From Candidatus Eiseniibacteriota bacterium (GTDB lineage Bacteria; Eisenbacteria; RBG-16-71-46; CAIMUX01; VGJL01): DNA of 64,000 bases. The notes beneath the pieces were generated by a model, which saw only the letters and a program-made list of their open reading frames with translations, searched no databases and was not told the origin of the DNA. Made by a program: the position numbers and the translations under genes. Of the stretch, positions 7,538 through 26,717 are shown piece after piece. Where the stretch lies: the NCBI GenBank assembly GCA_041946735.1, contig JBHGAY010000009.1:32001-96000 (forward strand). Reading direction: 5' to 3'. Position 1 is the stretch's first letter, and the number at the start of each line of letters is the position of its first letter.

Positions 7538-8518
7538 ATGCGGATCCTCGCGGGAGACGTGGGAGGGACGAAGGCCCTCCTGTCGATCTTCGAATGGGAG
7601 GGCGGACGGCTCCGGACGCTGCGCGAAGAGCGGTACCCGAGCGCGGAGGTCGAAGGCCTGCACACGCTCGTGGAGCTGTTCTGCGGAGAGGACCTGTGCA
7701 CGATCGACCGTGCCTGCTTCGGCGTCCCGGGCCCGGTCCTCGACGGCGAGGTTCGCGCGGTGAACCTGCCATGGAACATCAGCGCGAGGCAGGTCGCCGA
7801 GCGAACGCGGATCGGGGCGGTGGTGCTGATCAACGACTTCGAGGCGGTCGGATATGGGCTCGAGGCGCTCGAGCCGCATGATCTGCTCGTGCTGCAGGAG
7901 GGGCGCCACGCGCCGCGGCGTCCCGCCGCCTTGATCGGCGCGGGAACGGGGCTGGGCGAAGCCTTCCTCCTTTGGATCGGCGACCGCCGCATCGTCTACC
8001 CGACCGAAGGGGGACACACCGACTTCGCACCCCGCAACGAGCTGGAATGCCGGCTGCTCCTTTACCTCGCGCGCCGCTTCGGTCACGTCTCCTACGAGCG
8101 GGTTCTCTCCGGCCCCGGTCTCGTCAACCTCTACCGGTTCCTGGTGGACGAGGGGATCGAGGGGCGTTCGATCGACGTCGAGAGGGAGATGCAGCGCGAG
8201 GATCCCGCGGCGGTGATCTCCGCGCGCGCGATCGATCGCGCCGACCCGGCCTGCGAGCGGGCGCTCGATCTCTTCCTCTCGATCTACGGAGCGGAGGCGG
8301 GCAACCTGGCGCTGAAGGTCCTGGCGAGCGGAGGCGTGTACGTGGCTGGCGGCATCGCGCCGCGCATCACGACCGCGTTCGCCGCGGGGACGTTCCTCGC
8401 CGCGTTCCGCGACAAGGGGAGGCACGACCCGCTGATGGAGGAGATCCCGGTGAGGGTGGTACGCAACGTGCGGGTCGGCCTGCTCGGCGCCGCGCGCTTC
8501 GCCGCCCTGCTTCCCTGA
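7538..8518 (+). CDS. glk: Glucokinase
   Basis: ILAGDVGGTK, INDFEA, GAGTGLG, EGGH, SYERVLSGPGL, GGVYVAGGIAP and F.DKGR motifs. Confidence 0.93.
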   Translation: MRILAGDVGGTKALLSIFEWEGGRLRTLREERYPSAEVEGLHTLVELFCGEDLCTIDRACFGVPGPVLDGEVRAVNLPWNISARQVAERTRIGAVVLINDFEAVGYGLEALEPHDLLVLQEGRHAPRRPAALIGAGTGLGEAFLLWIGDRRIVYPTEGGHTDFAPRNELECRLLLYLARRFGHVSYERVLSGPGLVNLYRFLVDEGIEGRSIDVEREMQREDPAAVISARAIDRADPACERALDLFLSIYGAEAGNLALKVLASGGVYVAGGIAPRITTAFAAGTFLAAFRDKGRHDPLMEEIPVRVVRNVRVGLLGAARFAALLP

Positions 8519-8568: not shown

Positions 8569-9438
8569 CTAGCGATCGAGCGAGCGAAGCGCGAGCGATC
8601 CCGCGGCGTCCGGGATTCCGCCCGGCGCGCGCGCGAATGTGCCCTCCCCTCGCCCCATGTCGTGGCATCCGGCGCACAGCTCGTCGCTCGCCGGCTCGAA
8701 GCGAACGAGATTGTCTTCCCCGGCCTCCGTCAGGTCGTGGCAGGTGGCGCACTCGATCCGGCCGTCGAAGAGGCGAATCCGTGGATCGAGCGTGGCGCGG
8801 ATGCGGCTCCCGCCCAGGTCGGAGCCGGGCGTGACCTCGATCCCGAAGGGATGGGTCGCCTCCTCGCGGAATCGCGGAGCGCCGGCGGATAGCGACGCGA
8901 CCACGCTCGCCCCGCCTCGAGTTGCAGCCGCCGAAGCGACGGCGCCCGAAGCTCCGTGGCACGTGAGGCAGAGGTCCGAGGCGCTTCGCGTCGCGAACGC
9001 TTCCCCGTCCGCGTGGTAGAGGCTCGCCGCCTCCCTGTGCCCGCGTGACAAGAGGGAGAGCGGCCGTCCCGGCACGTGACACGCGACGCAGGCCTGGCGC
9101 TCCGACCCTCCGGCATGAAAGCGCGCCTCGCCCGCGAGGATCACGCCGGGATCATGGAAGCGGTGGCAGTCGGAGCAATCGCGCCCCCCGGCGTGGAAAG
9201 CTTGCAGAACGCGGTCCGCGTCGGCAGATTGCATCGCGTGGCATCCCGCGCACGCCGAGGACGGCGGCGCCGAGAACCGGCCCCCATCCGCGTGGCATTC
9301 GGAACACGGAAGCAAGTCGTGCGTACCGCCAGCGGGACAGGAGGAGGACGCGGCGACGCTCGCCGCAACGACAACGCACAACAGGAGCAAGCCGCTTCGC
9401 GCTCGCGCTCTCCGGCGGCACCGATCGAGGCCGTTCAT
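8569..9438 (-). CDS. Exported heptaheme c-type cytochrome
   Basis: 7 CxxCH motifs (CSECH, CAGCH, CSDCH, CVACH, CLTCH, CATCH, CAGCH). A basic then hydrophobic signal peptide follows ATG 9438, with GGGAG upstream. Confidence 0.88.
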   Translation of the reverse strand: MNGLDRCRRRARARSGLLLLCVVVAASVAASSSCPAGGTHDLLPCSECHADGGRFSAPPSSACAGCHAMQSADADRVLQAFHAGGRDCSDCHRFHDPGVILAGEARFHAGGSERQACVACHVPGRPLSLLSRGHREAASLYHADGEAFATRSASDLCLTCHGASGAVASAAATRGGASVVASLSAGAPRFREEATHPFGIEVTPGSDLGGSRIRATLDPRIRLFDGRIECATCHDLTEAGEDNLVRFEPASDELCAGCHDMGRGEGTFARAPGGIPDAAGSLALRSLDR

Positions 9439-9538
9439 ACCCGCTCCCTCTCCGCGGCCACGGGGCGCTGCCCGCTTCCCACCGCCGACCGGCGAGGGGA
9501 AACCGGGGAGCGTACACGCGGACCGGGCGGGATCGGAG

Positions 9539-9555
9539 TGCAACGATCGTACCAG
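9539..9555 (-). promoter_or_regulatory. Putative sigma54 (-24/-12) promoter of the heptaheme cytochrome gene
   Basis: Minus strand reads CTGGTACGATCGTTGCA, i.e. GG-N10-GC close to the TGGCAC-N5-TTGC consensus. It is intergenic, about 100 nt upstream of ATG 9438. Confidence 0.65.
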
Positions 9556-9644
9556 CCGAGCTGTTCGCCCGGTTCACTCGTGGCGGGCACCGGGCCGAAC
9601 GGAAGGCGGACAGGATGCCGGCCGTCACCGGCACTTCGTCGCGA

Positions 9645-10883
9645 TCACCGCTTGTGGCACTGGATGCAGAGGTCTCCGTCCGGATTGCGCGGAAGGTACT
9701 TCTCGAAGCGCGCGCCGTGCATCTGATGGCAGCTCAGGCAGGTCACGGACTCGCCCGACCTGGGATCGATGACCTCGGGACCGACCGGGTGCGAGGCCTT
9801 GTGCGCGCTCTCGTGGCATCGCACGCACAGATCGATTTGGCGGGTGGAGAGAAGGAGAGGATCGTCCGACCCATGCGGCGTGTGGCAGTTCGTGCAGTCC
9901 ATCCCCTGATGCGTCAGGTACTTCTGCTTGTCTCCGCCGCTCTCGTTGAAGTGGCACCGCATGCAGAGATCCTTCTGTTCCCCGGCGAGCAGCTTGGTCG
10001 CGTTCGAGGCATGCGGGTTGTGACAGGCCACGCACGACTCCTCGGTGTCCAGGTTGTGCCGGTGCGCGAGCGCGAGCGACTTCTCGATCGACCGGTGACA
10101 ACCGGTGCAGGTCTTCTGCACGGACGCCTTCATCGCGAAGGCGGACGCTCCGTCGGTCGCGGCGTGGCAGCTTCCGCAGGAGCCTGCGGCGAACGGCGCG
10201 TGCTGGTTCGCCCTCAGGAGCTTCCGTGAGGCGGAGGCGTGCGGATCGTGGCAGGCCGCGCAGTCCGACGCTCCGATCGCGTATCCCTTGTGCGCGGCCT
10301 GGAAAGAGGTGTTCTGCGGATGGCACCGCGAGCAGAGGCCCGCGACGTCCTCCACGAGGAGCTTTCCTGCGCTCGATCCGTGCGGCTCGTGGCAGATCGA
10401 GCAATTCCCCGACTTCAGCGGAGCGTGGACGACCGGCGAGGCGAGCCATTGCGCGACCGGGGCGTGGCAGCTTCCGCAAAGCGACTTGGGCTCGGCGACG
10501 AGCTGGTTCGGAAGGGCGGAGGCGTGAGGGGAGTGGCAACCGTCGCACTCTCCCGCCGCCGCCGGCACGTGCACGCTCGCCTTCTTCGTCTCTTCCGCGA
10601 CGGCCGGATGGCAGGAAAGGCAGAGCGGTCCCGTTTCCTCCTGAAGAAGCGCCGCGTGTCGCGATGCATGCGGATTGTGGCACTGGGAGCACTTGCCGCT
10701 CCGGAACGCGGTGTGCAGGTGCGCGGCCTTCGTCTGCTCCCGCACGTCGGCATGGCACTCGTAGCAGACGGCCGGCTCGTCCACGGGCGGGATCTCGGCC
10801 GACACTCTCGCCGCGCTCCAACCGAGAAGCGCGAAGAGAAGCGTGGCGAGGCCGGTGATTCCGGAAGGGAATCGACTCCTCAC
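9645..10883 (-). CDS. Periplasmic 16-heme c-type cytochrome (repeated H-P..CxxCHxPH..LCxxCH modules)
   Basis: 16 CxxCH motifs counted and a signal peptide. GTG 10883 overlaps the TGA of the upstream gene (GTGA coupling). Confidence 0.93.
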   Translation of the reverse strand: MRSRFPSGITGLATLLFALLGWSAARVSAEIPPVDEPAVCYECHADVREQTKAAHLHTAFRSGKCSQCHNPHASRHAALLQEETGPLCLSCHPAVAEETKKASVHVPAAAGECDGCHSPHASALPNQLVAEPKSLCGSCHAPVAQWLASPVVHAPLKSGNCSICHEPHGSSAGKLLVEDVAGLCSRCHPQNTSFQAAHKGYAIGASDCAACHDPHASASRKLLRANQHAPFAAGSCGSCHAATDGASAFAMKASVQKTCTGCHRSIEKSLALAHRHNLDTEESCVACHNPHASNATKLLAGEQKDLCMRCHFNESGGDKQKYLTHQGMDCTNCHTPHGSDDPLLLSTRQIDLCVRCHESAHKASHPVGPEVIDPRSGESVTCLSCHQMHGARFEKYLPRNPDGDLCIQCHKR

Positions 10884-12880
10884 GGCTTGCCCCCCTCCTT
10901 CCCGGCCGGTTCGCGATGGCAGACTTCGCACGCATTGCTGTCGAACGGCTGATGGCGCAGCTTGGCGATCAATCCTTCCCCATCGGATCCATGCGGGTCA
11001 TGGCACTTCGCGCAGTCCAGATCCGTCCCCGCCTCCCCGAGATGCGCGGCGCGGAACTCGGTCGCCTCCCCGTCGTGGCAGGCGAGACAGGTGGCCGGCA
11101 TGGCGCTCGTGAGAAGCGACGGGTGCTCGCTCTCGTGCGCCTGATGACACGACAAGCACTGTCCTTCCGCGGCCGGCGGGTGCTTTCCCGATTCGGCCAG
11201 CGTCTCCTGCACCTCCTTGTGGCAGTCGAGGCAGAGCGCCCCGGGCTCCTCCGGAAGCAGCTTCGCGATCTTCCCTCCATGGGGAAGATGGCAGCTCGTG
11301 CAGTCCCCTTCGCGGACCGGCTGGTGTCCGGAGGGGGCCGCCGCCGCCTCTCCCCGGACATCGCCGTGGCAGCCGCCGCAAGTCTCTGCGACCGGAGCCG
11401 CCATCAGATGCGCCTGCTCCGACGCGTGAGCAACGTGGCAGGTCTCGCACGCGCGCTCCTCGAACGGAGGATGGTGGACGGTCCGCTCCTGATCCTCGAG
11501 GAGCGACGCATGACAGCCGGTCGAGCAGAGCTCCGCCGGATCCACCTTCAGCAGATGCTCGTTCGCGGAGGCGTGAGCGGCGTGGCAGTCGTTGCAGTCG
11601 CCGGTCTTGACCGGCATGTGGATGCTCGTCTCCGCGCTCCATGCGGCCGTCTGCTCGTGACAGTCGCCGCACAGGTCGGAGCGGTTCTTCGCGGTCAAGG
11701 CAGGATAGTCGGACCCGTGCGGGCGGTGGCAGTCGAGACAGCTGCCTCCTTCGAACGGGGCATGGACGAACGTGGCCTCCGGGCCGCGAAGGTCCGAATG
11801 GCAGCGAAGACAGAGGTCGTTCGCCGGGACGGCGATCAGTCTTGCCTCCGTCCGGCCATGCGCCTGGTGGCAGAGCGTGCAGTCCTTCGAGGCCGGCTCG
11901 TGGCGCGAGGCTTTCGCGATCTCCTGCGCCACCTCTCCGTGGCAGCTGGTGCAGAGCGACGCAGCCGGCTTCACGAGGAGCGCCGGCTGCGTCGAGCCGT
12001 GAGGACGGTGGCAGTCGGTGCACATCCCAGCCGCGACCGGCTGGTGGACTCCCTCGCCCGGCGCCTCGTGGCAGCCGGTGCAGAGTTCGTTCGCGTCGGC
12101 GGCGTTCAAGGCGAACGGCTCCGCGTCGTCGGGCGGATGGTGGCACGCCTCGCACGATCCGTCGGCGACCGGAGCGTGGAAGGATACGGCGAGCAGCTTC
12201 GGACTGGCCGAGGAATGCGGCGCATGGCACTCCCCGCAGTCCTTCGAGGAGAGGTCATAGCCGGCGTGGGCACTGGCGAACTGCGGCTTGCCCGTCTCGT
12301 GGCAGTCGGCGCAGAGCGCGGTCTGCTCCTTCTTCAGTAGATGCTCGGCGTCGGAGCCGTGCATCTCGTGGCAGGCGGCGCAACCGTCCTTGAGGGGTGC
12401 GTGGCGATGCTCTCGTTCGAATCCGGCTCGATCATGGCACGAGAAGCATGCCTCCCCGCCGGCGGCTCGCATCAGGCCCCGGGCGTCGCTCGCATGGGGA
12501 TCGTGGCAGGCGGTGCACTTCCCTTGAGCGGCCGGAGCGTGCGTGTTCGCGCGGTCCAAGCCGAGCGCGGCGCGGTCGTGGCAGGTATAGCAGAGGGCCG
12601 CTCCGTCCTCCTTGAGGCGCAGCGCGCCGACGAGGCCGTGCGGCTTGTGGCAGGAGAGGCATTCCTTCGCCGCGAACGGGGCATGCTGCACTGACCCGGG
12701 AAACTGTGAGACGGGATGGCACTTCAGGCAGGACTCGTCCTTGCCCGAGAAGCGCCGGCCTCGCTTGACCTGGCCGGCAGCGGGATCCGCGGCGACGGCA
12801 GCGAGGCCGAGCGCGAGCAACGCGCAGGCGATTCCTGTCCAGGAAACGGAGCAAGTCATCCGCGCCGGGACTCCCCTCAT
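10880..12880 (-). CDS. Periplasmic 26-heme c-type cytochrome
   Basis: 25 CxxCH plus one CX3CH (CSTGCH), in the same double-heme repeat. Signal peptide after ATG 12880. Confidence 0.93.
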   Translation of the reverse strand: MRGVPARMTCSVSWTGIACALLALGLAAVAADPAAGQVKRGRRFSGKDESCLKCHPVSQFPGSVQHAPFAAKECLSCHKPHGLVGALRLKEDGAALCYTCHDRAALGLDRANTHAPAAQGKCTACHDPHASDARGLMRAAGGEACFSCHDRAGFEREHRHAPLKDGCAACHEMHGSDAEHLLKKEQTALCADCHETGKPQFASAHAGYDLSSKDCGECHAPHSSASPKLLAVSFHAPVADGSCEACHHPPDDAEPFALNAADANELCTGCHEAPGEGVHQPVAAGMCTDCHRPHGSTQPALLVKPAASLCTSCHGEVAQEIAKASRHEPASKDCTLCHQAHGRTEARLIAVPANDLCLRCHSDLRGPEATFVHAPFEGGSCLDCHRPHGSDYPALTAKNRSDLCGDCHEQTAAWSAETSIHMPVKTGDCNDCHAAHASANEHLLKVDPAELCSTGCHASLLEDQERTVHHPPFEERACETCHVAHASEQAHLMAAPVAETCGGCHGDVRGEAAAAPSGHQPVREGDCTSCHLPHGGKIAKLLPEEPGALCLDCHKEVQETLAESGKHPPAAEGQCLSCHQAHESEHPSLLTSAMPATCLACHDGEATEFRAAHLGEAGTDLDCAKCHDPHGSDGEGLIAKLRHQPFDSNACEVCHREPAGKEGGKP

Positions 12881-12938
12881 CCCCCCATCCTCTCCATCGG
12901 CCAACTGCCCCCTTGCCCCCTCGATCCCGTCCCGCGAC

Positions 12939-14636
12939 CTACGAGCCGGAGCCAAAGTACTCGTCGATCGCCTTCTCGTCCCGCACGATCCTCGAAGCCG
13001 CCTTCAACGCTTCGAGCTGCCGGTCCAGGATCTCGTTGAACTTCTGCTGGAACATCACCCGGCGGATTTCGCCGTCGGCCTCCTCGATCGTTCGAAGCGG
13101 CCCGGGTCGGCGATCCTTCATCTTCACGAGAAGCCAGCCCGTCTCGACCGCGAACGGGCCGCCGATGCCGCCGATCGAGATCGTCTTGAGCTGCTCGGCC
13201 ATGGGCGGCGGCAGCGTCCCAAGGCCGATCCATCCCCGGTCTCCGATCGGATCCCCGGCCGCGGCTTCCGCCTTCTGCTTGAGAAACGCGAAGTCCGCGC
13301 CTCTGTTCAGCCGCTCGAGCGTCGCCTCCGCCTCCTCCTGCGTCGGCAGGAGAATGGTGAGAAGTTGGATGTCGTCGGGTCCCCGGAACTCCTCCTGGTG
13401 GCTCTCGTAGTAGTCGCGAAACTCTTCGTGCCGAAACGTGATCTTCGGGACGACCATCTCCTTCAGATAGAGATCGATCAGCACCTCGGCCCGCTTCTGC
13501 TCCACCTTCCTCCGGACCTCCGGATCGTCCAGGAAGCCGCCGTCCCGAGCCGAGCAGTAGAGCACGAGATCCTCGATCTTCGTGTCGATGCCGCGCTGGA
13601 GAAGGGTGTCGAACGGCGCCGTCGCCTCGGTCATCGCGCCGTGGGAGACGGCCCGGCGAAGCGCCCCCTCCGTCACCGTGTCGCAGCCGGCCACCGTCAG
13701 CGCCGCCCGCGTCGATTCGCGAAGGAACGTCCCGGTGAGAACGGCGTCCGAGTCCGCCTCGAGAGCCGCGATCGCCTCGGGATCGATCTGCACCGGGATC
13801 GCCTGCTTCCGCGCGCCGACGAAATCCCGCCAGGCCTTCTCCTTCGCCGCGCTCTGGAGGAAGCCGATCACCTTCGCGCGAACCTTTCGGTAGTCGCTCG
13901 TGTCCGGCTCGTCCCGTGACTCCATCCGGACGAGGCTGAAGAGGCTGCCATACGCGAACGGCCGGGAGATCTCCCCCGCCTTCAGGTCGATCGCCGCCGC
14001 ACGGACGGGGATCTCGACGTCGATCCAGGGTCCGAGGTGATGGAGGCCACCCCTCGCGGACCAGGAGTCGCGGGAGCGCTGGCGCGCGAGGCTGTCCATC
14101 GAGGCGCCGGCGCGAATCGCGGACAGCACCTCCTCCGCCTCCTCCATCGATGCGACGGAGATCTGGCGTATCTGCAGCTTCCAGTAGTACTCCCGGAAGT
14201 GGGCCAGCGCCTGCTCCTCGGCAACGGGGGGAGGCGGGACATACGCCGAAGCGACGTACCGCCGGATCGCCTGTTGTCGCCGCTCCTCCGCGATCGCCGC
14301 CTGCGCTTCGGGCTCCTCGTCCAGACCGATCGATTCGGCTTCACGGACGAGCAGCCGGTCGTGGATCAGCTTCGTGAGCAGCTTGCGGTAGTCGAACGAT
14401 TCCTTGCGATCGCGACTCATCGTCTGATGAGTCCGGATCAGAAGCTCGTCGAGGTCGCACGCCCGGATCGTGTCTTCGTCGACGATCGCGAGAACGGTCG
14501 CCTCCGCGGCTCCCTTCGGTCCGGAAGATCGAGCCGGCGGGGCGACCGCGATCATAGCCGCCAGGCCGATGCCCGCGAGGAGGACGAGAGGGGGCACGAG
14601 CGCGCGCGCGCCGCTCGGTTCATCGCCTCGACGCAT
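12939..14636 (-). CDS. SurA/PrsA-like foldase with two parvulin (PpiC) domains
   Basis: Signal peptide. First domain: IRQISV..EEAEEVL..GASMDSLARQRSRD..GG..GEISRPF. Second domain: LLTILL..EEAEATLERLNRGADFAFL..GDRGWI..GPFAVETGWLLVK. Confidence 0.85.
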   Translation of the reverse strand: MRRGDEPSGARALVPPLVLLAGIGLAAMIAVAPPARSSGPKGAAEATVLAIVDEDTIRACDLDELLIRTHQTMSRDRKESFDYRKLLTKLIHDRLLVREAESIGLDEEPEAQAAIAEERRQQAIRRYVASAYVPPPPVAEEQALAHFREYYWKLQIRQISVASMEEAEEVLSAIRAGASMDSLARQRSRDSWSARGGLHHLGPWIDVEIPVRAAAIDLKAGEISRPFAYGSLFSLVRMESRDEPDTSDYRKVRAKVIGFLQSAAKEKAWRDFVGARKQAIPVQIDPEAIAALEADSDAVLTGTFLRESTRAALTVAGCDTVTEGALRRAVSHGAMTEATAPFDTLLQRGIDTKIEDLVLYCSARDGGFLDDPEVRRKVEQKRAEVLIDLYLKEMVVPKITFRHEEFRDYYESHQEEFRGPDDIQLLTILLPTQEEAEATLERLNRGADFAFLKQKAEAAAGDPIGDRGWIGLGTLPPPMAEQLKTISIGGIGGPFAVETGWLLVKMKDRRPGPLRTIEEADGEIRRVMFQQKFNEILDRQLEALKAASRIVRDEKAIDEYFGSGS

Positions 14637-15681
14637 GATCCTCCCGCGGCTGTTCTTCGATCTTCGCAACGAGGCGATCGAGGGACTCCTCGACAAGGCG
14701 CCCGAGGCTCGTGGTCCAGCCGAGCGGAAGAAGGCCGGCCCGTCGTTCTCCTCCAGTTTGTTCCTCGATCGCCTGGAACAGATGGCCCGTGCGGGCGTCG
14801 ACCAGGCGAACGCCATAGGCGAGCCGCGGCATCGCCATCTGGGCGTCCCCTTGCGACTCGACGGCCTCGTCGACCTCTCCGGTGATCGCGAGATCGATGG
14901 CCAGATCCTCGCGTAGAGCGCGGAGCGTCTCGAGATCGATCCCTCCGCGCGGCGCGACATGCAGGCGCTCGAAGAGCCGCCGGAGCAAGCCCGGCTCGAC
15001 GATGTCATAGCCATGGGCGAACAGCACGGGGAGCAGAAGATCCGAGACGAGGGGGCCGTCCTGGGGATCCTGCGGGCTTCCATCGAACGGGACGATCGCG
15101 ATCCGTCCCTGCGTGGGCCCCGTTCTCTTGCCGTCCAGGCAGGCGGCGAGACGCGCGATCGCCTCGCGCACGACGTCCCTCGCGAGGAGATCCGGATCGC
15201 GGACCCTCCCGATCTCGAACAGCGAAGCGTGGTCGAGCCCTGAGGAGGCGGCCGAAGCGGCGGCGATCACGCGGAGATCGGACGGCGCGAGCAACCGGAG
15301 GGCGACGGCAATCTCGGGGTTCTCCCCCTCCTGGTAGAGAATCACCGAACCGAGCAGGAGCGCCTCGGCGCCTGTCGCCTCCGCAATCCGCGCGCCGTCC
15401 TCTTGATCGAGCGAGGCCAGCGAGCGGATCCGGTGCTCGCGCAGGACTCCGCGAACCTGCTCGTCGTCGAGGAGCCGCCACCGCTTCGCCGCCTCCTCCC
15501 GCACGATCGGCAACACCTTCTCGGCGCCCGAGCCGTCCGCCGTGCCATCGGCAAGGCCGAGGACAGCGACGGCGAGAACGCCTTCGGGCGCCGTCTCGGG
15601 CATGGCCGTCTGCGCGAAAGCCGCGGTGGAAACCGCGGAGATGGAGGCGACGAGAAGGATGCCGAGCAGGGCCGCACGCAT
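14620..15681 (-). CDS. Exported protein with two tandem CsgG/PelC/GNA1162-like alpha-beta domains
   Basis: Signal peptide (..STAAFA). Two repeats of the AV/IVPF..G...A.GAEALLLGSV...RLVDARTG pattern, which also resembles the neighbouring lipoprotein. Confidence 0.7.
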   Translation of the reverse strand: MRAALLGILLVASISAVSTAAFAQTAMPETAPEGVLAVAVLGLADGTADGSGAEKVLPIVREEAAKRWRLLDDEQVRGVLREHRIRSLASLDQEDGARIAEATGAEALLLGSVILYQEGENPEIAVALRLLAPSDLRVIAAASAASSGLDHASLFEIGRVRDPDLLARDVVREAIARLAACLDGKRTGPTQGRIAIVPFDGSPQDPQDGPLVSDLLLPVLFAHGYDIVEPGLLRRLFERLHVAPRGGIDLETLRALREDLAIDLAITGEVDEAVESQGDAQMAMPRLAYGVRLVDARTGHLFQAIEEQTGGERRAGLLPLGWTTSLGRLVEESLDRLVAKIEEQPREDHASRR

Positions 15682-15683
15682 CG

Positions 15684-16280
15684 TCAATGCACCAGGGTGC
15701 GGATCGTCCGGTCGACGCACCGTCGTGTCACTTCGCTCGCCGAGGCATCGTCCGATCCGAGGAGCGAGCCCCAGAAGCTGCGTCCATCCTCCGTGTGCGT
15801 GGCGGACCAGACCGTCGATCCCCTTTCGACCTCCACGAGCCTGGCCGTCAGAGTGATGACCGGCGTGCTGGAGGCGCCGCTGCGAGCCGTACCCGACTCT
15901 CCCACGCTTCCGAGGAACAGCGCTTGCGTACTGAGCTCTTTCCCTATGTCGACGATCTGCTGCTCGGTAAGCTCCGCCGTCCGCGTCAGCCCGTACTTCT
16001 CGAGGACGCGCGTCACCTCCCCCGGCTCGACCACTTCAAACGCCCCGGTCGCGAGAAGCTCCGAGACGAAATACCGGGTCGTGCGGAACGCGGCTCCCTG
16101 GTCCTGGCTCAGGTTCTCGAACGGAATGACCGCGACCTTCTCGACGTAGTTGAAATCGTAGTCGGGATGGAGAAACACAGTCGGCCTGCTTCCGGCGCAT
16201 CCCGAGCCGATCACGGCGGCCAACAGCGGCAGCAGGACTCCGATCCCGGGGAACGAGCGGACTGGTTTCACGGTTCTCAT
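15684..16280 (-). CDS. Lipoprotein, PelC/GNA1162(DUF799)/CsgG-like
   Basis: Lipobox-like IGSG-C, then KVAVIPFENLS, FEVVEPGEV, ALFLGSV and ARLVEVERGSTVWS. Confidence 0.8.
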   Translation of the reverse strand: MRTVKPVRSFPGIGVLLPLLAAVIGSGCAGSRPTVFLHPDYDFNYVEKVAVIPFENLSQDQGAAFRTTRYFVSELLATGAFEVVEPGEVTRVLEKYGLTRTAELTEQQIVDIGKELSTQALFLGSVGESGTARSGASSTPVITLTARLVEVERGSTVWSATHTEDGRSFWGSLLGSDDASASEVTRRCVDRTIRTLVH

Positions 16281-16287
16281 CCTGTCG

Positions 16288-18423
16288 CTAGAAGGTGGTC
16301 CGGATCCCCTGCTGGAGAGACGTCGTGCTGCTCCCTCCCGCCTCTCGAAAGTCCGAACGGGATCCGGTCAGGTAGAGGCTCGTACGGGAGTTGAGGTCGT
16401 ACTCCAGCGTGGCTCCGTACCTCTCGGTCGCGGTTCCACCCGCGTAGCTGTCCAGCTCCGCCTGGGCGCTCAGGCGCACCTTGCCCGTCAGAAGCCATCC
16501 GAGCGCGTATTCCTGCGTCACCGTGCTGCCATGGTCGTCGCTCACGCTCGCCGCGGCGCGAAGGTCGATCTTTCTCGTGGCGTTCCAGTCGAGATCGAGG
16601 CGTCCCTGCGTCCGCACACGCACCGTCTCGGTCGGGATCGTCCGGGTATCCTGATGCTGCAACGACGCGCTCATATTGAGCGCAGGATGGAGCGAACCGC
16701 CGAGTGTCGCGCCATAGCTCCAGGTGTCGTGTCGAAGGCGGCCGAGGTAGTCATTGTCCCGAATCTTGCCGCCTTCGAGCCCCAGCCGGAGCTCCGGGAG
16801 CGGAGTCCCCTGAAAGCGGACCAGGACCGAGTTGTTCTCCAGGCTCCGACGCTCGTCCAGGAAGCTCAGGCGCGTTTGCGCGGTCAGATCGAGCTGGATC
16901 GTCGACAGAGGATCGAACTGCAGTGTGTAGGAGCCGAGCCTCTCCGTCACGTCCCCGATCCCCTCCCGCGACTCCTCCAGCCCCTGTTGCCAGCGCGCTG
17001 AATGCTGGAACAGGCGCGACTGGCGTAAGCGGCCGGCGAGCCGATAGTACGCGCTCGTCCGGCTTCCAACAACCGCCTCCCCCGTCTTGTGGCGGTAGCC
17101 GAGGTTGATGGAGGCGTCCGCCGCCTCGGAGAACTTCATCTGTCCGCCGACGTCGGCGATATGGGCCAGCTCCTCCCGCCGGTCCTCGTCCTCGCCGGGG
17201 ATCCCCTGCAGCACCTCGATCTCGGTGACGAGGACGTCCACGATCTCATTCAGGCCTTGCTTGACGACCTTGACATATCGCGTCTCCACCGGGACGAGCA
17301 GTATCTCGTAGCGGTTGAGCCCCGGATTGAAGAGTGGCGCTCGATCCTGAGGGACCAACCGCCAGGTCAGATTGTCGTCCGAGACGTAGGCCGCCCAGCC
17401 CGGCTGCGATCCGGAGGACCGGTCCGTGTAGAGGTACAGCGCGCGAATCTCGCGAGAGAATCCTAGATCCGCACCGGCGTTGGTTCCCTCGACCGCTCCT
17501 CCGATCCGGACCGGCGGCTGGGTCGCCCCTTGCCGGTCCCCGTCTCCGAGACCCGGGAGCGGGTCGAGCGAGCCGAACTCCGGCGTCAGATCTTCGGCGA
17601 AGAGAGGAGTGAAGTCGGGAATGGGATCCAGGATCTCCTCGCCAACGGTCCGCCGATCACGCTGGAAGCGGTCGGAGAACGTGTACGCGGCGTTCACGCG
17701 GAGATGATTGGAGAAGCCCCGAGTGGACGTGTCAAGACGAGCGCGGTGCCCCGTGAGGTCGCTCTGCACGCCGTGGATCACGTTCTCGGTCCTACGCCTG
17801 TCGAACTGATAGGTGACCGACTGCCCTTTCCAGGTATGCCGGATCGAGGCCTGCCCTTCCTTGTCGCGGATGTCCTGGGAGAGGTCGGCGCCACGATCGA
17901 AGATGTGATCCGCATCGAAGCGGAAGGTCAGCCTCGGATACCGGACCGCTCGGGTGGACCCATGGATCGTGAAGTTGTCCGAGATCACGTCGCCGGCCAG
18001 GCTGGACGCATGGGCCGTGCGGCGACGGATGCCCGCGCCGAGCGTCAACGCGCGGCCGCCATAGAGGATCTCGGCGGACGGCTGCACTTCGCGGTTCCAG
18101 AGGTCGGTCGCCTCGGCCTGCCGCTGGTCGGCCTTGGTGTAGAGGATGCCGGCGCGTAGATTCAGGTGCTTCACGAACGTCTTCGACCAGTTGAGCGTGT
18201 AGTGCTGCCGGACATTCCCTTGATCGTCCCCGTCGATCTCCGACTGCACCGCGCTGACGTCGATGGAGCCGCTGAACGCCTGCGGAAGGATCGCTGCGCG
18301 AGCGGAGGGAAACGAGAGGAGAAGCAGACTCAGGGCCGCACCCGTCCACCGCCCCGCACTCCCGATTCCGAGCACTCGAGTCACTCCGATCGTTCTCCCC
18401 CTCGGCCGCGAGGACGCCCGCAC
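16288..18423 (-). CDS. Large outer-membrane beta-barrel protein with an inserted soluble domain
   Basis: Signal peptide, many alternating amphipathic beta-strands, and C-terminal Phe (QQGIRTTF). The start could instead be GTG 18384. Confidence 0.8.
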   Translation of the reverse strand: MRASSRPRGRTIGVTRVLGIGSAGRWTGAALSLLLLSFPSARAAILPQAFSGSIDVSAVQSEIDGDDQGNVRQHYTLNWSKTFVKHLNLRAGILYTKADQRQAEATDLWNREVQPSAEILYGGRALTLGAGIRRRTAHASSLAGDVISDNFTIHGSTRAVRYPRLTFRFDADHIFDRGADLSQDIRDKEGQASIRHTWKGQSVTYQFDRRRTENVIHGVQSDLTGHRARLDTSTRGFSNHLRVNAAYTFSDRFQRDRRTVGEEILDPIPDFTPLFAEDLTPEFGSLDPLPGLGDGDRQGATQPPVRIGGAVEGTNAGADLGFSREIRALYLYTDRSSGSQPGWAAYVSDDNLTWRLVPQDRAPLFNPGLNRYEILLVPVETRYVKVVKQGLNEIVDVLVTEIEVLQGIPGEDEDRREELAHIADVGGQMKFSEAADASINLGYRHKTGEAVVGSRTSAYYRLAGRLRQSRLFQHSARWQQGLEESREGIGDVTERLGSYTLQFDPLSTIQLDLTAQTRLSFLDERRSLENNSVLVRFQGTPLPELRLGLEGGKIRDNDYLGRLRHDTWSYGATLGGSLHPALNMSASLQHQDTRTIPTETVRVRTQGRLDLDWNATRKIDLRAAASVSDDHGSTVTQEYALGWLLTGKVRLSAQAELDSYAGGTATERYGATLEYDLNSRTSLYLTGSRSDFREAGGSSTTSLQQGIRTTF

Positions 18424-18506
18424 CCTGCGGCGCGGGCGTCCCCTTCTCGTGCTTCTCTTCTACTGCTTCTCTTCCGGCCGGTAGATGTCCCGGCCGCGCG
18501 GCTCAC

Positions 18507-19562
18507 TTACGGATTCGAGCCCTCGTCGTCCGCGTCCTTGACGTGGCACTTGTTGCAGAGCGAGCGCTGATGCTCGTCGTAGGGGTTCGGGATCGCGTAG
18601 CTACCCGACTCGACGCCGTCTTCGGCCAAGAGCGTGAGATTGAAGTCCCAGCGGCCGGCGTTCGGCGCGGAGGTCGCGTGCGCGCGGTGGCAGCTGATGC
18701 AGGAGACCTGGCTGCCGGCGCTGGGACCCATCGTCGACTCGATCGTCATCGACGCGTCCTCGAAGGGAACCGCGGCCAGGTACGCCGTCGCCTGCGTTCC
18801 GCCCTCGTAGTCGCTCGTCCCGTTGTACATGTTGTAGTTGTCGGCGATGCTCCCGCCGACCGTCTCGCCCGACGGGTGGATGAGCGCGGTGCCGTTGTTG
18901 TGGTAGTCGCCGTGGCAGTTTGCGCACCAGGCGCTCATTCCGCCCTGATAGGCGGTGTGGTAGTTGTTCGCCTCGGGGGCGCTGTCGCTGAAGTTGATTC
19001 CCTCGGCGGTCGGCGCCGCGTTCTCGAAGAGGAAGTAGCCGTCGTTCACCATCCGGCCCGCGCCGTACAGCAGCCGGAACGCCTGGGTCCCGTGCGGGTC
19101 ATGGCAGCTCGAACACGCGAGATGATCCGACCGGAACGAACCTCCGGGAGCGGTGACGAGGACCGGGTCGGCGACCGAGCCGTACGAGGGGGCGATGATG
19201 TTGTGTCCCGCCTTGTGCCCCGGAATCGGGTTCTGGCCACCGTTGTGACCGTCGTTGATGTTGTCCTCGAGCAGGTAGGTGAAGTTGCCGGCGCCCTTCT
19301 CGGGCGGCGGATTCAGCGGGTCGTTCCAGAACACCTTGCCACGGCTCGTCGCGTGGCACGAGAGGCACATCTCGCTCGGGTTGGCCTCTTTCAGGAGCCA
19401 GGCGTTTCCGTTCGGATGGTCCGGGTCGATCGGAACCCCATCCTCGCTGTTGTGCATCGTGTGGCACCCTCTGCAGGCCGCCACTCCGCCGTCATGGAAT
19501 GCGAAGCTGGGGGTCGCGAGGACGAAGCAGATTCCCAGCCCGATGATGATCATCCTGTGCAT
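18507..19562 (-). CDS. omcS: OmcS-family hexaheme c-type cytochrome (candidate nanowire subunit)
   Basis: GGGAGGA RBS and a 21-aa signal peptide, then FHDGGVAACRGCHTMHNS, GHNIIA, TAPGG..LACSSCHDPHG, GMSAWCANCH, AYLAAVPFE, VSCISCHRAHA and QRSLCNKCHVKD. These are collinear with G. sulfurreducens OmcS motifs as I recall them. Six CxxCH motifs. Confidence 0.92.
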   Translation of the reverse strand: MHRMIIIGLGICFVLATPSFAFHDGGVAACRGCHTMHNSEDGVPIDPDHPNGNAWLLKEANPSEMCLSCHATSRGKVFWNDPLNPPPEKGAGNFTYLLEDNINDGHNGGQNPIPGHKAGHNIIAPSYGSVADPVLVTAPGGSFRSDHLACSSCHDPHGTQAFRLLYGAGRMVNDGYFLFENAAPTAEGINFSDSAPEANNYHTAYQGGMSAWCANCHGDYHNNGTALIHPSGETVGGSIADNYNMYNGTSDYEGGTQATAYLAAVPFEDASMTIESTMGPSAGSQVSCISCHRAHATSAPNAGRWDFNLTLLAEDGVESGSYAIPNPYDEHQRSLCNKCHVKDADDEGSNP

Positions 19563-19693
19563 GGACTCGTTCCTCCCAAGTTTGGAAGCGAATGGAATGG
19601 ATGTCGTGTGCGACCACTTCGAACTGTTCTCCGCAGTGCTTCCCCTCGCGCTCGTTCCTCCTTCCCGGTCTGTCAGCCCCGATTCCGAAATCT

Positions 19694-20806
19694 CTATCGA
19701 CGAACGGCGTATCCACTGTCCGGATCGATCCCGACGGCTTGCGCATTCGCTTCTCGAATGAAGCGCGGCACACGGCACATCTGGACCTTCCCCTCGAACC
19801 ACTGCCCGACGTACACGATCTCCTTGCCGTCCGTGGCGAGCAGAGTCGGGTGGTAGAACCATCCCGGGCTGGATCCCAGCCCGCCGAATTCACCGAGGAA
19901 GGTTCCTTCCCGATCGAAGCAGAGGACCGCATAGCGGTGCTTGTCGAGAACCAGAAGAAGTCCCTCGTCGGTTCCTGCGACGGCCACGGGAAAGTTCAGC
20001 TCCCCGATGTTGTTGCCCCCGTAACCAACCGTGCGCAGGAACTTCCCCGCCAGCGAAAAGACCTCGACGGTCGCGGCCGGCGTGATCGGAACGTAGAGAC
20101 AGTCTCCGATTCGTTCGATCGAGCCGTATCCGACTTCGCTGGGCCGCGGCTCCCGCTCCACCCCGACAGGGAAGGAGCGAACGCGGCGGCCGCCCGCATC
20201 GAGGACGACGACGACGCCCTCATCGGGATCGAGCAGGTAGATCGAGCCTTCGTCATCGACCGCGAAGCTGCTCGCGTGGGCCGGGAGATCTTCCGGCTGT
20301 CCCACGGTTGCGAGAAAAAGCCCGTCGAAGTCGAAGAGGAAGAGTCGGGATCCCTCAGGCGTAGAGCCGAGGACGAGGATCCGGCCGAGTGGATCGATCG
20401 CTACATCGAGGGGTGCCCCGAAGCGAGAGCCACCGCGGAACTCGAAGCGGTAGGTTCCTTCCGCATCGAAGACGAGTATCCGGTTGTGTCCCGCTTCCGC
20501 CAGCACGAGCTCCTTCGCCGCCGGATCGAAGGCGACCGCTTGAGGTCGGAGCAGTTCGTCGGTCTCCCCGGGGAGGTTCACCATCCGGACGAAGTCCGAA
20601 GGAACCGCCCGAGACGGGGGCGCTTCCGCGCGAGGCGGGGGCGCTTCCGATGCTGCAGACTGTGCAATCGACATCGAAAGAAGGCCTGAGGCGAGCGAAA
20701 GGAGAACCGCATGCAGCGCGGCTCTTGCCTGGTGCGGAAAGAAGGCGGGGGCCCGGGTTTGGCGATCCGGCCGGCTCGCCGTTAGCATTACTTTCTGTGA
20801 ATCCAT
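19694..20806 (-). CDS. NHL-repeat six-bladed beta-propeller protein, exported
   Basis: Repeats LLRPQAVAFD, FGAPLDVAIDPLGRI, GELNFPVAVA and PGWFYHPTLLATD, with a hydrophobic N-terminal segment. Start uncertain (20806 or 20788). Confidence 0.85.
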   Translation of the reverse strand: MDSQKVMLTASRPDRQTRAPAFFPHQARAALHAVLLSLASGLLSMSIAQSAASEAPPPRAEAPPSRAVPSDFVRMVNLPGETDELLRPQAVAFDPAAKELVLAEAGHNRILVFDAEGTYRFEFRGGSRFGAPLDVAIDPLGRILVLGSTPEGSRLFLFDFDGLFLATVGQPEDLPAHASSFAVDDEGSIYLLDPDEGVVVVLDAGGRRVRSFPVGVEREPRPSEVGYGSIERIGDCLYVPITPAATVEVFSLAGKFLRTVGYGGNNIGELNFPVAVAGTDEGLLLVLDKHRYAVLCFDREGTFLGEFGGLGSSPGWFYHPTLLATDGKEIVYVGQWFEGKVQMCRVPRFIREANAQAVGIDPDSGYAVRR

Positions 20807-20970
20807 TCGCGATCAATAATATCAATAAGGGACGGCTAGTGACAAAGGCGTTAGCTGCCTTATTTATGAAGTACATCATCAGACGCGCTAATGTAATCTC
20901 TGGCCGGGACACGCATCCACTGAAGCACTTCTGAGCTAAGCTCTTCGAAAATAACAAGATTCAGTGTTGC
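20780..20970 (-). promoter_or_regulatory. AT-rich upstream regulatory region of the omcS cluster
   Basis: Sharp drop in GC content. Contains a TTATTGAT direct repeat (minus strand) and an imperfect Rex-like palindrome at 20795-20812. Confidence 0.45.
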
Positions 20971-21178: not shown

Positions 21179-21733
21179 TCAATCCCCGTGGGCTTTTGCT
21201 GCCGCGGCCGCGGCATCGAGCCGGCGGCGGCAGTCCTCACAGAAGTCGTCCCCTTTGAGGTCGACCTCCTCCACTCCGGAGGAGAAGTGCATGGCGCAGT
21301 CGAACGAAGCGCAGTGGACGAGGCCGAAGGCGTGCCCCAGCTCGTGGAGCGCCTCCTTCTCGGCCCGGTGGTAGAAAAGCTCCGAGTCCTCCGGCAGCCC
21401 ATAGAAAGTCGGACGGAGCCGGGTGAGCGAGAAGGTGGCGGCGGGCCCGCCGAGATGGGCTTCACCGAACACGAACGTCAGGATCGGGATGTGGAGGTCC
21501 GCGTCGATCACGCCGAGGATCTTCTGCCCGCTCTCTTCCCTTCCTCGGGCCAGGGCATCGAGGATCTTCGTCGAGTGGTGCTGTCGCCGGACCGGGTCAT
21601 AGGCGAAATCGGCCAACAACGGCTCGGGCGCGACACTCACCTCCGCTTCGAGTCTCTCCGCGAGAAAGAGAGAGAGATAGGAGGTGAGAGCCTCGTCGAC
21701 GACCCCCACCGGAACGATGAGGATGCGGCGCAC
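21179..21733 (-). CDS. Archaemetzincin-family (M54) Zn metalloprotease
   Basis: KEALHELGHAFGLVHC...CAMHFS..EEVDLK...FCEDC, and LTFVFGEA. Confidence 0.9.
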   Translation of the reverse strand: MRRILIVPVGVVDEALTSYLSLFLAERLEAEVSVAPEPLLADFAYDPVRRQHHSTKILDALARGREESGQKILGVIDADLHIPILTFVFGEAHLGGPAATFSLTRLRPTFYGLPEDSELFYHRAEKEALHELGHAFGLVHCASFDCAMHFSSGVEEVDLKGDDFCEDCRRRLDAAAAAAKAHGD

Positions 21734-21736
21734 CTC

Positions 21737-23085
<1,349 letters not shown>

Positions 23086-23089
<4 letters not shown>

Positions 23090-24723
23090 TTCGCCACCTC
23101 CGGTTGCCCTTCCCGGTTTTCCGGGGGCTGGGGAGGAAGATGGAAGCGGAAGCTCGTTCCTTCCCCAGGAACGGATTCCACGTCCACCTTGCCTCCGTGC
23201 CCCTCCAGGATCCCATACACAACGGCCAGGCCGAGCCCGGCGCCGCCTTCCTTCGTCGTGTAGAACGGCTCGAAGAGATGGCGCCGCGTCTCCTCGTCCA
23301 TCCCCACTCCCGTGTCCCGGATCTGCACGCAGATCCCGCGTCCCTCCGAATCGCGCCGGGTCGTCACCGACAGCACTCCGGAGCCCGACTCGCCCTGCAT
23401 CGCTTCGCACGCGTTGATCAGGACGGCGACGAACGCCTGCCGGATCTGCTGCGGATCGCAAACGATCGAGGGCAGATCGGCGGCCAGGTCGAGCTCGCAG
23501 CGCAGCCCCTGCAGGTCGATCTGGTGCTGGACGAGGCGGACGGTTCCCCGGACGAGTTCGTTGATGTCGCACGGCTCCGCCTTCGGCCTCGACGGGCGCG
23601 AAAACTGAAGGAGATTCTTCACGATCTCGCCGCAGCGGGTCGCCTCGCTTTCGATCTGCGCGAGGATCTCCTGGGTTTCCGACGAAGCGGAGTCCGGACC
23701 GTTCTCTGCCGCGCGCCTACTCGCGCGCTTGCCGAGCAGCTTGGCGTAGGTGCGGATACCGGCCAGGGGATTGTTGATCTCGTGAGCGACGATCGCGGCG
23801 AGCTTCCCCATCGACGCCATCTTCTGCGTCTGCAGCATCTCCTCCTGCGCCCTCTCCAGCGCCCGCGACTTCTCCTCCACCCGCGATTCCAGCGTGCGAG
23901 CCCAGGCCGCCTCCTTCTCGCGCGCCAGCGCCAGCTCCGCGGTCATCCGGTTGAACGAGACGGCCAACCGTCCCAGCTCGTCGTCCGACGCGATCGGGAT
24001 GCGCCCGGTGAGGTCGCCCCCGCCGATCCGCTGAGTCTCCTTCATGAGGCGCTTCACCGGAACGTGCACCATCCGGTACAGCAGCCAGGAGCACAGGGCG
24101 ATCAGCGCCAGCAGGACGAGCGAGATCGAGACGATCAGCTGCCGCGAGACGCGAGCCAGCTCGCGATCCACGTTCTCGAGGGTCATCTGCACGTCGAGCA
24201 CTCCCAGCACCCTCTTGTCCGCTGGGTGGGCATGGCACGAGGCATTCGCGCAGCTCGGCTCGTTCTGGATCGGGGCGATCATGCCGAGAGTCCGGTGGCC
24301 GTCCGGGTTGCGGAAGATGCGGAAGCGCTCCGACTGCGGGATCTCCGGGACCGGCTCCTGGCCCCGATGGCAGTTCACGCACGCCTCGGCGCGCGGATCG
24401 ACCATCTGCCCCACTTCCTCGGAGTGAGTCGAGTAGCGGATCCGTCCCCCCTCGTCGTAGATCCGGATCCGGTCGAACTCGGGCTGCTCGCCGGTCGCCT
24501 GGATGATCTCGAAGATTTCTTGCCGTTCGTTGCGGAACATGAAGGACCGGGTGCTGCGACGGATCAGATCGCAGACCCGGTCGGTGTCCCGTACGACCGT
24601 CTTCTCCATCTGCCTTCGGCTCTCGCCCACCACCCAGAAGCCGAGCAGCCCCAGGAACAGGGCCACTCCACCGGCGAGAAGCAGCGAGAGCCGAAACGCG
24701 AGTGCCCTCGGTCCGAACCTCAT
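23086..24723 (-). CDS. Sensor histidine kinase with HAMP domain and a periplasmic c-type heme-binding sensor domain
   Basis: Two TM segments flank CVNCH and CANASCH motifs. H-box AHEINNPL, N-box NACEA, and G boxes DTGVG and GAGLGL. Confidence 0.92.
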
Positions 24724-25883: not shown

Positions 25884-26656
25884 CACTCCACCCCCATCCC
25901 TTCCGCCCGCTCGCGCGCCGCCATGCGCTCGCGAGCCAGAACCATGCGCCGGTTGATGATCCAGTAGAGGCCCGACAGGAGGCTCCCGCCCACCAGGACG
26001 ACGTTCGGCAGCTTCGAGAGAACCGCCTCGGTGTACTCCTCCATCGGATGGCCGGGCAGGTTCACCGGGAGTCCCAGCTCCGCGAAGGAAACGTCCGAGA
26101 GGATCAGGACCGAGGTCCCGCCTCCCTCCTCCTCGCCATAGACCTGCTGGACGTAGACGTCCGGCTGCTGCGCGATCCTCTCGTGCGCGATCTTCAGCAG
26201 CTCCTCGCGATCCCCGAAGAGGGTCGCTCCGGTCGGGCAGGCCTCGGCGCAGGCGGTGGGAAGTCCCTGTGCGAGTCGCGGCGCGCAAAGGATGCACTTG
26301 CGGACGGCCGGGTTCGTCGAGGACCACTCGTAGCGCGGCACCCCGTACGGGCAGGCCATCATGCAGTAGCGGCAGCCGATGCACCGAGACTCGTCGTAGA
26401 GCACCGGCCCCTCGGGGGTCTTGTGGAACGCGCCGACGGGACAGACGGACGCGCAGGTCGGGTGGAGGCAGTGCATGCACATCCGCCGGATGTTGCGCGA
26501 ACCGTCCGCTACCTGCCTCTCCTGCACGACCGTGTAGGACTTGTCGGAGAGCTCGTTGCCTTCCGTCTCGGGAAGGTGGTTCGCCTCACGGCAGGCCTCG
26601 CGGCACGCACCGCATCCCACGCACTGGGTGACATCGAACAGGATCCCCTTACCCAT
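25883..26656 (-). CDS. 4Fe-4S dicluster protein (HybA/NrfC-like) with C-terminal TM anchor
   Basis: CVGCGACREAC, CMHCLHPTCASVCP, CIGCRYCMMACP and KCILC..ACAEACP, followed by a C-terminal hydrophobic helix. Confidence 0.92.
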   Translation of the reverse strand: MGKGILFDVTQCVGCGACREACREANHLPETEGNELSDKSYTVVQERQVADGSRNIRRMCMHCLHPTCASVCPVGAFHKTPEGPVLYDESRCIGCRYCMMACPYGVPRYEWSSTNPAVRKCILCAPRLAQGLPTACAEACPTGATLFGDREELLKIAHERIAQQPDVYVQQVYGEEEGGGTSVLILSDVSFAELGLPVNLPGHPMEEYTEAVLSKLPNVVLVGGSLLSGLYWIINRRMVLARERMAARERAEGMGVE

Positions 26657-26717
26657 GACCTCCCTCCGTCGTGAGCGTGCTGCAGCGCGCGCTCGCCGTA
26701 TCGATCCCCTCTTGAGA

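Follow-up and report, generated by a model that had tools for sequence, protein, structure and literature searches.

The hexaheme cytochrome OmcS of Geobacter sulfurreducens forms a fibre about 4 nm wide, in which one of the 12 heme ligands is donated by the neighbouring subunit (PMC6584659). For the products of the osc operon, roles in folding (OscH), secretion (OscE, OscF and OscG) and filament morphology (OscD) have been described (PMC13194489), and GSU2495 encodes a 26-heme cytochrome (bioRxiv 2025.11.06.686851). OmcS homologues are known from diverse bacteria (PMC10954620), OmcS genes were reported in a Krumholzibacteria metagenome-assembled genome (MAG; bioRxiv 2020.09.22.307553), Eisenbacteria are among the taxa with iron-cycling genes (PMC8478452), and Shen et al. 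2025 (Cell Chem Biol 32:239) call the machinery widespread and ancient in their title. An osc-type cluster outside Geobacter is therefore unsurprising in itself. Here we describe such a cluster from a Candidatus (Ca.) Eisenbacteria genome, assembly GCA_041946735.1. It lies in a 64,000-nt window, positions 32,001 to 96,000 of contig JBHGAY010000009.1. By its gene content the locus is a slimmed-down variant of the osc cluster described in Geobacter, which agrees with an earlier sequence-only reading that the system type is not wholly new. It rather probably works as an osc-type operon making an OmcS-family surface cytochrome together with export and electron-feeding parts, the hexaheme being exported and polymerised.

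The cluster consists of nine open reading frames (ORFs) on the minus strand between 8569 and 20806, listed here in the order of transcription.

19694..20806, minus strand: NHL-repeat beta-propeller with signal peptide (PF01436, PF17170; start at 20806 or 20788)
18507..19562, minus strand: short OmcS-family hexaheme cytochrome c, presumed filament subunit (351 aa, 330 mature)
16288..18423, minus strand: OscE-like outer-membrane beta-barrel (AlphaFold2 model, fold search, profile match to the barrel of Geobacter-type locus L126)
15684..16280, minus strand: OscF-like lipoprotein of PelC/CsgG/LpoB fold (conserved Cys28, PelC profile matches, CsgG Pfam)
14620..15681, minus strand: OscG-like periplasmic protein, about two PelC-like domains long (PelC profile match)
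12939..14636, minus strand: OscH-like double-parvulin peptidyl-prolyl isomerase/chaperone, 565 aa (Pfam Rotamase, Rotamase_2)
10880..12880, minus strand: OscI-like 26-heme cytochrome with signal peptide (25 CXXCH and one CX3CH, a motif every 20-28 residues)
9645..10883, minus strand: OscJ-like 16-heme cytochrome with signal peptide (CXXCH count)
8569..9438, minus strand: 7-heme cytochrome with N-terminal hydrophobic segment (CXXCH count; generic cytochrome domains)

The gene order and tight, co-oriented packing given by the sequence-only reading were confirmed, as were its labels for the NHL protein, the OmcS-like hexaheme, the barrel, the PelC-like pair and the double parvulin, for which Pfam, PDB, AlphaFold2 and profile evidence was obtained. 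With the likely starts, the NHL and hexaheme genes are separated by 131 nt, hexaheme and barrel by 83-122, barrel and F by 7, F and G by 2, H and I by 58, and J and the 7-heme gene by 206 nt; G and H overlap by 17 nt, I and J by 4. Four likely true starts lie well downstream of the listed ORF starts (hexaheme 19562, G 15681, H 14636, 7-heme 9438). All nine products carry N-terminal export signals.

Related loci were collected by a scan of GTDB genomes, in which 355 stretches matched a pattern and at least 198 encode a relative; the best 80 were fetched. Many of these end at contig ends, and gene-content counts are lower bounds. The seven-gene core (hexaheme, barrel, F, G, H, I and J) recurs in 46 of the 80 loci, which excludes a chance arrangement. 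The cluster contains 54 CXXCH motifs (6 + 25 + 16 + 7) and one CX3CH, which is the 18th site of the 26-heme protein. In all 42 full 26-CXXCH orthologues from the 80 loci the 18th motif is CXXCH, with spacing in register. The earlier total of 55 heme sites therefore holds if the CX3CH is counted.

Geobacter-type comparators were sought in a metagenome scan, which yielded 33 loci. Locus L126 contains an NHL gene, a close OmcS (E 6e-193 to 6EF8), a spermidine-synthase-like gene, a second hexaheme, a 467-aa propeller and a barrel. As this is the published osc order, the last three were named OscC, OscD and OscE. Osc names were assigned by position in L126 and in a second locus, L079. Through these OmcS-bearing loci the companion genes of the window cluster were shown to be homologous to the omcS neighbourhood: the NHL protein is 30% identical to that encoded upstream of OmcS in L126 (E 4e-19), a profile built from 50 short-clade barrels detects that of L126, which is no part of the profile alignment (E 1e-42), and the OscH-like protein is 23% identical to its L079 orthologue (E 1e-26).

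The osc cluster of G. sulfurreducens (GSU2505-GSU2493) has the same order of upstream NHL, hexaheme, OscE, OscF, OscG, OscH, OscI and OscJ. It differs in having three hexahemes, as against one here, and in carrying a spermidine-synthase-like gene, OscD and a downstream NHL gene, none of which is in the window cluster; the latter adds the 7-heme cytochrome, and identity to osc proteins is only 20-35%. The last two genes of the eight-gene Geobacter block are a 16-heme cytochrome gene (GSU2494) and an NHL-type gene (GSU2493); here the slot after the 16-heme gene is occupied by the 7-heme gene, with no NHL. The description "apparently complete" could thus not be upheld, as OscD, the downstream NHL, the spermidine-synthase-like gene and a second hexaheme are all missing. 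Since two defining features of the Geobacter block (OscD and the last gene) are absent, and strict OmcS orthology does not hold (see below), the locus was classed as a variant.

The only sequence match of the hexaheme in the PDB was OmcS (6EF8, E 2.4e-42), which was also the lone Foldseek match of its model (pLDDT 74.5, TM 0.63). The two proteins are 31% identical. Six CXXCH motifs and six distal histidines align with 6EF8, i.e. all 12 heme ligands are kept. In an alignment of 74 rows five distal histidines are invariant and the equivalent of His16, the ligand donated by the neighbouring subunit in OmcS, is present in at least 90% of the rows. The alignment drew on 65 of the 120 homologues listed, on nine proteins of the loci and on the query itself. 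The hexaheme resembles OmcS (6EF8/6NEF) also in CXXCH spacing, N- and C-terminal motifs, signal-peptide cleavage context and fold. It is unlike OmcS in its mature length (330 vs 407 residues, 77 shorter, with two large deletions) and in an extra invariant (H202) and a nearly invariant histidine (H221). With six CXXCH, six distal histidines including the His16 equivalent and the OmcS fold, it is a member of the OmcS family in the broad sense. Five loci (L035, L071, L085, L086 and L092) encode seven-heme OmcS-family proteins, some of them solitary, without osc neighbours.

The barrel protein had no Pfam or NCBIfam match, and PF11854 (MtrB_PioB) matched neither the barrel nor any protein of the host genome. 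Its AlphaFold2 model (58 rows, pLDDT 91) has 28 long strands by manual count and no plug. A CBM32/F5-8-like domain is inserted after strand 11 (residues 224-366 match CBM32 7d2a_A, Z 11.9, rmsd 2.9); as the number of strands before the insert is odd, this domain would lie outside the cell. Among 48,161 chains the best fold match was MtrB (6r2q_B, Z 19.9, rmsd 7.2, 370 aligned residues; next Z 17.5), and PelB ranked 41. Foldseek placed TonB receptors first and MtrB third, but with the highest TM-score among the rows listed (0.40). MtrB has 26 strands, as against the 28 modelled here. The backbone diameter of a 28-strand barrel was estimated at 50-53 A with an assumed shear number.

The two genes following the barrel had been labelled a PelC/CsgG-like lipoprotein and a double protein of the same kind. 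The PelC fold was supported for both, whereas the conserved lipoprotein cysteine was found only in the first. In the OscF-like family Cys28 is conserved in at least 90% of 59 rows, the CsgG Pfam model matches 40 of the 59 members, and the family profile matches PelC chains 5t11, 5t10 and 9h80 (E 5e-9 to 2e-6). The OscG-like protein has an ordinary signal peptide without the lipoprotein cysteine. Its profile matches PelC 9h80_C (E 9e-15) in a single stretch of the C-terminal half, and an N-terminal PelC-like repeat is suggested by length and motif repetition. In the PelBC exporter the 16-strand barrel bears, on its periplasmic side, a ring of twelve PelC subunits (PMC12141448). On the strength of the PelC-profile matches and this precedent, the architecture here is likely to be an outer-membrane barrel with a periplasmic PelC-like collar. 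A role of the barrel in exporting polysaccharide was dismissed, because the operon has no synthase genes.

The OscH-like protein contains two PPIC/rotamase regions; NCBIfam models of PrsA/SurA type matched below cut-off. The 26- and 16-heme proteins are built of paired-CXXCH repeats and score best on a DmsE/MtrA-type model, the 26-heme protein exceeding the DmsE-family cut-off. To these two proteins the other members of the phylum add an informative variant. An OscF profile detected 63 of 201 phylum genomes at E 1e-30, and 20 of the 62 other loci were fetched. A single ORF with exactly 42 CXXCH is present in 18 of the 20 and is in pieces in the remaining two (36+6; 35+4). The window 16-heme protein corresponds to the C-terminal part of the 42-heme ORF in 18 of 18 cases, and in 17 of the 18 the 26-heme protein matches its N-terminal part. 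That the two are fused, and that the count stays at 42, suggests that OscI and OscJ act as a single chain, and the fusion in relatives points to a wire of fixed length. With roughly 8 A per heme, the figure for MtrA, a chain of 42 would be about 30 nm long and could bridge the periplasm.

Most of the 20 loci encode a distant hexaheme, a second 6- or 9-heme cytochrome and a shorter barrel-like protein; in 17 of them no match to OscH/parvulin was found. The distant hexahemes keep the twelve ligand positions (15 aligned). Seventeen Eisenbacteria genomes (L136-L152, e.g. L142:5459-14621) share a deeper osc-like subtype without a parvulin match. It comprises an NHL gene, a distant hexaheme, a cytochrome with 6 or 9 hemes, a barrel-like protein of about 520-575 aa, a pair of PelC-like genes of single length and the fused 42-heme cytochrome, in many cases preceded by a gene of about 200 aa.

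These data bear on an alternative in which the locus is primarily a porin-cytochrome conduit, and a secretion pore secondarily or never. Like MtrA in MtrAB, the 42-heme chain would be threaded through the MtrB-like barrel, and here also through the PelC-like collar. At the surface the hexaheme would serve as the terminal cytochrome, monomeric or a short oligomer, as OscC may be in Geobacter. The lead of MtrB in the fold search (Z 19.9 vs 17.5), the lack of a plug, the MtrA-like repeats and the constancy of the 42-heme total, split or fused, all fit such a conduit. So does the observation that 17 of the 20 fetched Eisenbacteria loci keep the PelC-like proteins and the 42-heme chain when OscH is not detected and the hexaheme is distant. 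A barrel of 50-53 A backbone diameter, computed with the assumed shear number, would also be a tight fit for a subunit of a 4-nm fibre. Conduit and export are mutually compatible. We regard a primary conduit with a non-filamentous terminal cytochrome as rather unlikely.

In the preferred reading, export and polymerisation of the hexaheme, the steps would be as follows. Hemes would be attached by the host Ccm system; the heme maturation genes ccmA, ccmC and ccmF are encoded in the host genome, on contig C41. The double parvulin would fold or hold the hexaheme in the periplasm, by analogy with OscH. The plug-less 28-strand barrel with its PelC-like collar would serve as the outer-membrane portal, a role based on the modelled fold, the PelBC assembly and the function proposed for OscEFG. 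Outside, the hexaheme may polymerise head to tail through a heme ligand supplied by the adjacent subunit, as the conserved ligands suggest, giving a filament slimmer than that of OmcS. The 26- and 16-heme proteins would join end to end into a 42-heme chain passing electrons across the periplasm to the filament base. The likely purpose would be to respire on insoluble acceptors or partner cells, or to exchange electrons with them. Long-range electron transfer by this host is an inference and was not upheld in the form given by the sequence-only reading; even in Geobacter the need for OmcS is disputed (PMC13194489).

Several findings weigh against this reading. Relative to OmcS the hexaheme is missing a loop of 32 residues (OmcS 151-182) and about 22 residues close to its C-terminal end. 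It is 31% identical to both hexahemes of L126, OmcS and OscC (162 vs 163 bits). A quick tree built on 105 rows separated 80 short proteins from 25 mostly long ones, and both OmcS and OscC fell within the long clade (SH-aLRT 99). The hexaheme lay outside the OmcS/OscC clade, as it did when eight distant hexahemes were used as outgroup (40 hand-picked rows). A clade uniting it with OmcS was rejected (p-AU 6e-83, for a group named after the tree had been seen). Its position outside the OmcS/OscC pair makes it a relative from before their split. It does not group with OmcS to the exclusion of OscC and is not a strict OmcS orthologue; the term "single omcS" was therefore abandoned. OmcS alone is known as a wire-former, and OscC, OmcT and OmcJ are not known as such (bioRxiv 2025.11.06.686851); omcS itself was reported dispensable on anodes and Fe(III) oxide in Geobacter (PMC13194489). 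OscD (about 470 aa) is expected between hexaheme and barrel, where the window has no room for it, and no OscD-like gene was found in the cluster or the host genome by tblastn with two OscD-like queries (best E 7e-5, under half length). The best fold match of the barrel, MtrB, holds a cytochrome and does not secrete one. Finally, no short PpcA-like triheme was found in the host genome, and four heme-copper oxidase-family subunits mean that metal respiration is not the only option of the host.

The last point is connected with a further alternative, in which the same hardware works inward or as a store: electrons would be taken up from reduced minerals, electrodes or partner cells for oxygen or nitrogen-oxide respiration, or the hemes would act as a capacitor, and Fe(III) reduction would not be involved. 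The direction of electron flow is unreadable from sequence, and in addition to the four PF00115 matches the host has an NrfA/NrfH-like pair of multiheme ORFs, recognised by inspection only. On the other side, the OmcS systems characterised in PMC12307469 and PMC10954620 are all in electron-exporting Geobacter, and a CbcL-like quinol-side protein is present in the host. We consider inward or storage use improbable. The CbcL-like protein is part of a second multiheme locus on host contig C23 (L133:8475-17995), which encodes a 9-heme cytochrome with a PKD domain, a 4-heme cytochrome, a 499-aa protein without Pfam match, a 13-heme cytochrome, a 5-heme NapC/NirT-like protein and an 11-heme-plus-cytochrome-b protein. 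This locus, whose 11-heme-plus-cytochrome-b component is of CbcL-like build, is a candidate quinol-to-surface route able to feed the osc chain. Two more host cytochromes, with 6 hemes (900 aa; L156:478-3180, contig C1) and 7 hemes (507 aa; L157:582-2102, contig C71), have a T9SS type A sorting domain at the C-terminal end (TIGR04183, above cut-off) and are possibly surface cytochromes exported via the type IX route.

The 80 fetched loci come from about ten lineages (Eisenbacteria, Ignavibacteria, Zixibacteria, Krumholzibacteria, Calditrichota, Fibrobacterota, Delongbacteria, Gemmatimonadota, Acidobacteriota, Alphaproteobacteria and one deltaproteobacterium). A protein search returned 3,986 homologues. 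The rarity implied earlier is thus contradicted by at least 198 stretches in GTDB genomes encoding a relative, as well as by the Krumholzibacteria report and the title cited above. Both hexaheme and barrel are present in 62 of the 80 loci; an OscD-like gene accompanies them in 20 and is absent from 42. A downstream NHL gene was found in six of the 32 full loci with over 600 bases downstream. Six loci (L007, L021, L027, L033, L045 and L072; Acidobacteriota where titled) have an NHL gene after the 16-heme gene and none before the hexaheme. As NHL genes occur in either position, one NHL propeller per cluster may suffice.

The only unusual trait of the window cluster among the 80 loci is the downstream position of its 7-heme gene. 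Such a gene is present in 24 loci, always upstream of the NHL gene, and in none of the 32 full loci was it found downstream. It is an accessory of short-hexaheme clusters. The protein belongs to no named family beyond generic cytochrome domains, and an atlas search gave generic cytochrome clusters alone. Its family has six conserved non-motif histidines for seven hemes, so that one heme may have a free position or take its ligand from a partner protein. No published description of the 42-heme fusion or of an Eisenbacteria osc cluster was found in a search that left out most subscription papers; Shen et al. 2025 may cover Fibrobacterota-Chlorobiota-Bacteroidota (FCB) lineages, the OscD-less form or the fusion. 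The accessible parts of PMC12307469, PMC13712944, PMC13748539, bioRxiv 2026.07.18.739370 and PMC11492766 contain nothing on this cluster.

The genomic context of the cluster is given by the following features.

7538..8518, plus strand: glucokinase, convergent with the cluster; marks a chromosomal slot common to members of the same family
20816..20845, minus strand: sigma70-like promoter candidate heading the operon, in AT-rich surroundings (10/12 matches, TG included)
21179..21733, minus strand: archaemetzincin; genes for a sigma54 response regulator, a sensor kinase and NrfD/4Fe-4S proteins lie upstream

The sigma70-like search gave two overlapping sites, as against 0.7 +/- 0.8 in shuffled sequences, by consensus match only. 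No terminator was found on the minus strand. A search that allowed two mismatches found no sigma54 site ahead of either the NHL or the hexaheme gene, which leaves control by the adjacent sigma54 regulator unsupported. The upstream block (21179-28343, minus strand) codes for two GcvH-like proteins, a 4Fe-4S protein, an NrfD/HybB-like membrane protein, the sensor kinase, the sigma54 response regulator and archaemetzincin. In the 80 loci, which come from other genomes, no linkage of this block with the cluster was seen, but the two are linked in G003, a genome of the same family.

The host genome (4.89 Mb, 94.8% complete, 1.8% contaminated) belongs to Ca. Eisenbacteria, so the non-Geobacter host of the sequence-only reading stands. 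Relatives assigned to its family, order and class carry hexahemes identical with those of the Ca. Eisenbacteria loci L001, L002 and L003. A Desulfuromonadia fragment wrongly assembled or binned into the MAG was considered, in favour of which the GC3 of the cluster (0.73-0.90) is slightly below that of the adjoining glucokinase (0.89). The tetranucleotide distance of the cluster is ordinary, however: of 370 chunks of the genome, 24% lie at least as far out. Its proteins share 60-68% identity with FCB/Acidobacteriota copies, and Geobacter-type OmcS is matched at about 31%. The flanking glucokinase had its top score in four of five same-family genomes and the enolase of the contig in all three same-family genomes holding one. 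In addition, a same-family genome carries an osc-type cluster between the same two flanking genes, glucokinase and archaemetzincin. The fragment reading is refuted, with a negligible chance of being right; composition, protein identities and flank matches likewise rule out a Geobacter contaminant. The contig is native and non-chimeric, which settles the doubt about chimerism raised with the first description.

The same-family cluster differs in type. In G003 (L155) a fused-subtype osc cluster occupies the slot, with OscF 34% and hexaheme 43% identical to those of the window, and in G004 (L158) a similar subtype lies beside the same glucokinase. The window OscF is 43-65% identical to most copies from other phyla, and at E 1e-50 the hexaheme profile detects only 10 of the 201 phylum genomes. 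The simplest reading is that the resident osc subtype of the family would have been replaced by transfer at the same chromosomal site. A plasmid search gave no match. In G003 and G004 the gene order is spermidine-synthase-like gene, EFGH, 42-heme cytochrome, NHL and, last, the hexaheme, and the heme genes of G004 are in overlapping frames (7+18+17 and 3+3 motifs). G008 (L154:105-3691) has two ORFs with 17 and 11 hemes immediately upstream of its barrel gene, and the gene after its hexaheme encodes 4 hemes.

Taken together, the data allow a broader proposal, which we put forward tentatively. The osc machine would be a secretion pore and a trans-envelope wire of fixed length at once. The 42-heme chain, split 26+16 here and in Geobacter-type loci and fused in many Eisenbacteria, would start at the inner membrane, pass the PelC-like collar and reach the 28-strand MtrB-like barrel, where it would charge a filament. 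The subunit of that filament would be a short OmcS relative of early branching. Such slim nanowires would be the common form in uncultured FCB and Acidobacteriota, and the nine-gene OscD-less operon a near-minimal portable kit that here appears to have replaced the resident subtype of the family at the same site.

If the short hexaheme polymerises, cytochrome nanowires would be common in uncultured FCB and Acidobacteriota, beyond Desulfuromonadia, which would change the count of mineral- or partner-respiring microbes in soils and sediments. With one hexaheme and no OscD the locus is a simpler test object than that of Geobacter for asking which OmcS relatives form wires and by what means a wire leaves the cell and receives its electrons. 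A concrete, testable role for OscI and OscJ is offered by the 42-heme count, which is constant, and by the 26+16 fusion. The interest of the system lies in the short hexaheme clade, the minimal OscD-less layout and the 42-heme fusion, which ease testing of nanowire export and charging.

Two other known systems are comparable in part. In the PelBC exporter (9H80) a barrel is likewise encoded with PelC-fold lipoproteins. PelB differs in having 16 strands and TPR domains, whereas the barrel described here has 28 strands and no TPR, is accompanied by two different PelC-like proteins, and stands in an operon without polysaccharide synthesis genes. MtrAB of Shewanella (6R2Q) is likewise a large plug-less barrel encoded beside paired-CXXCH cytochromes. 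It carries 10 hemes as against 42 here, and the cluster barrel is set apart from it by the CBM32-like insert, the PelC-like partners and the lack of a PF11854 match.

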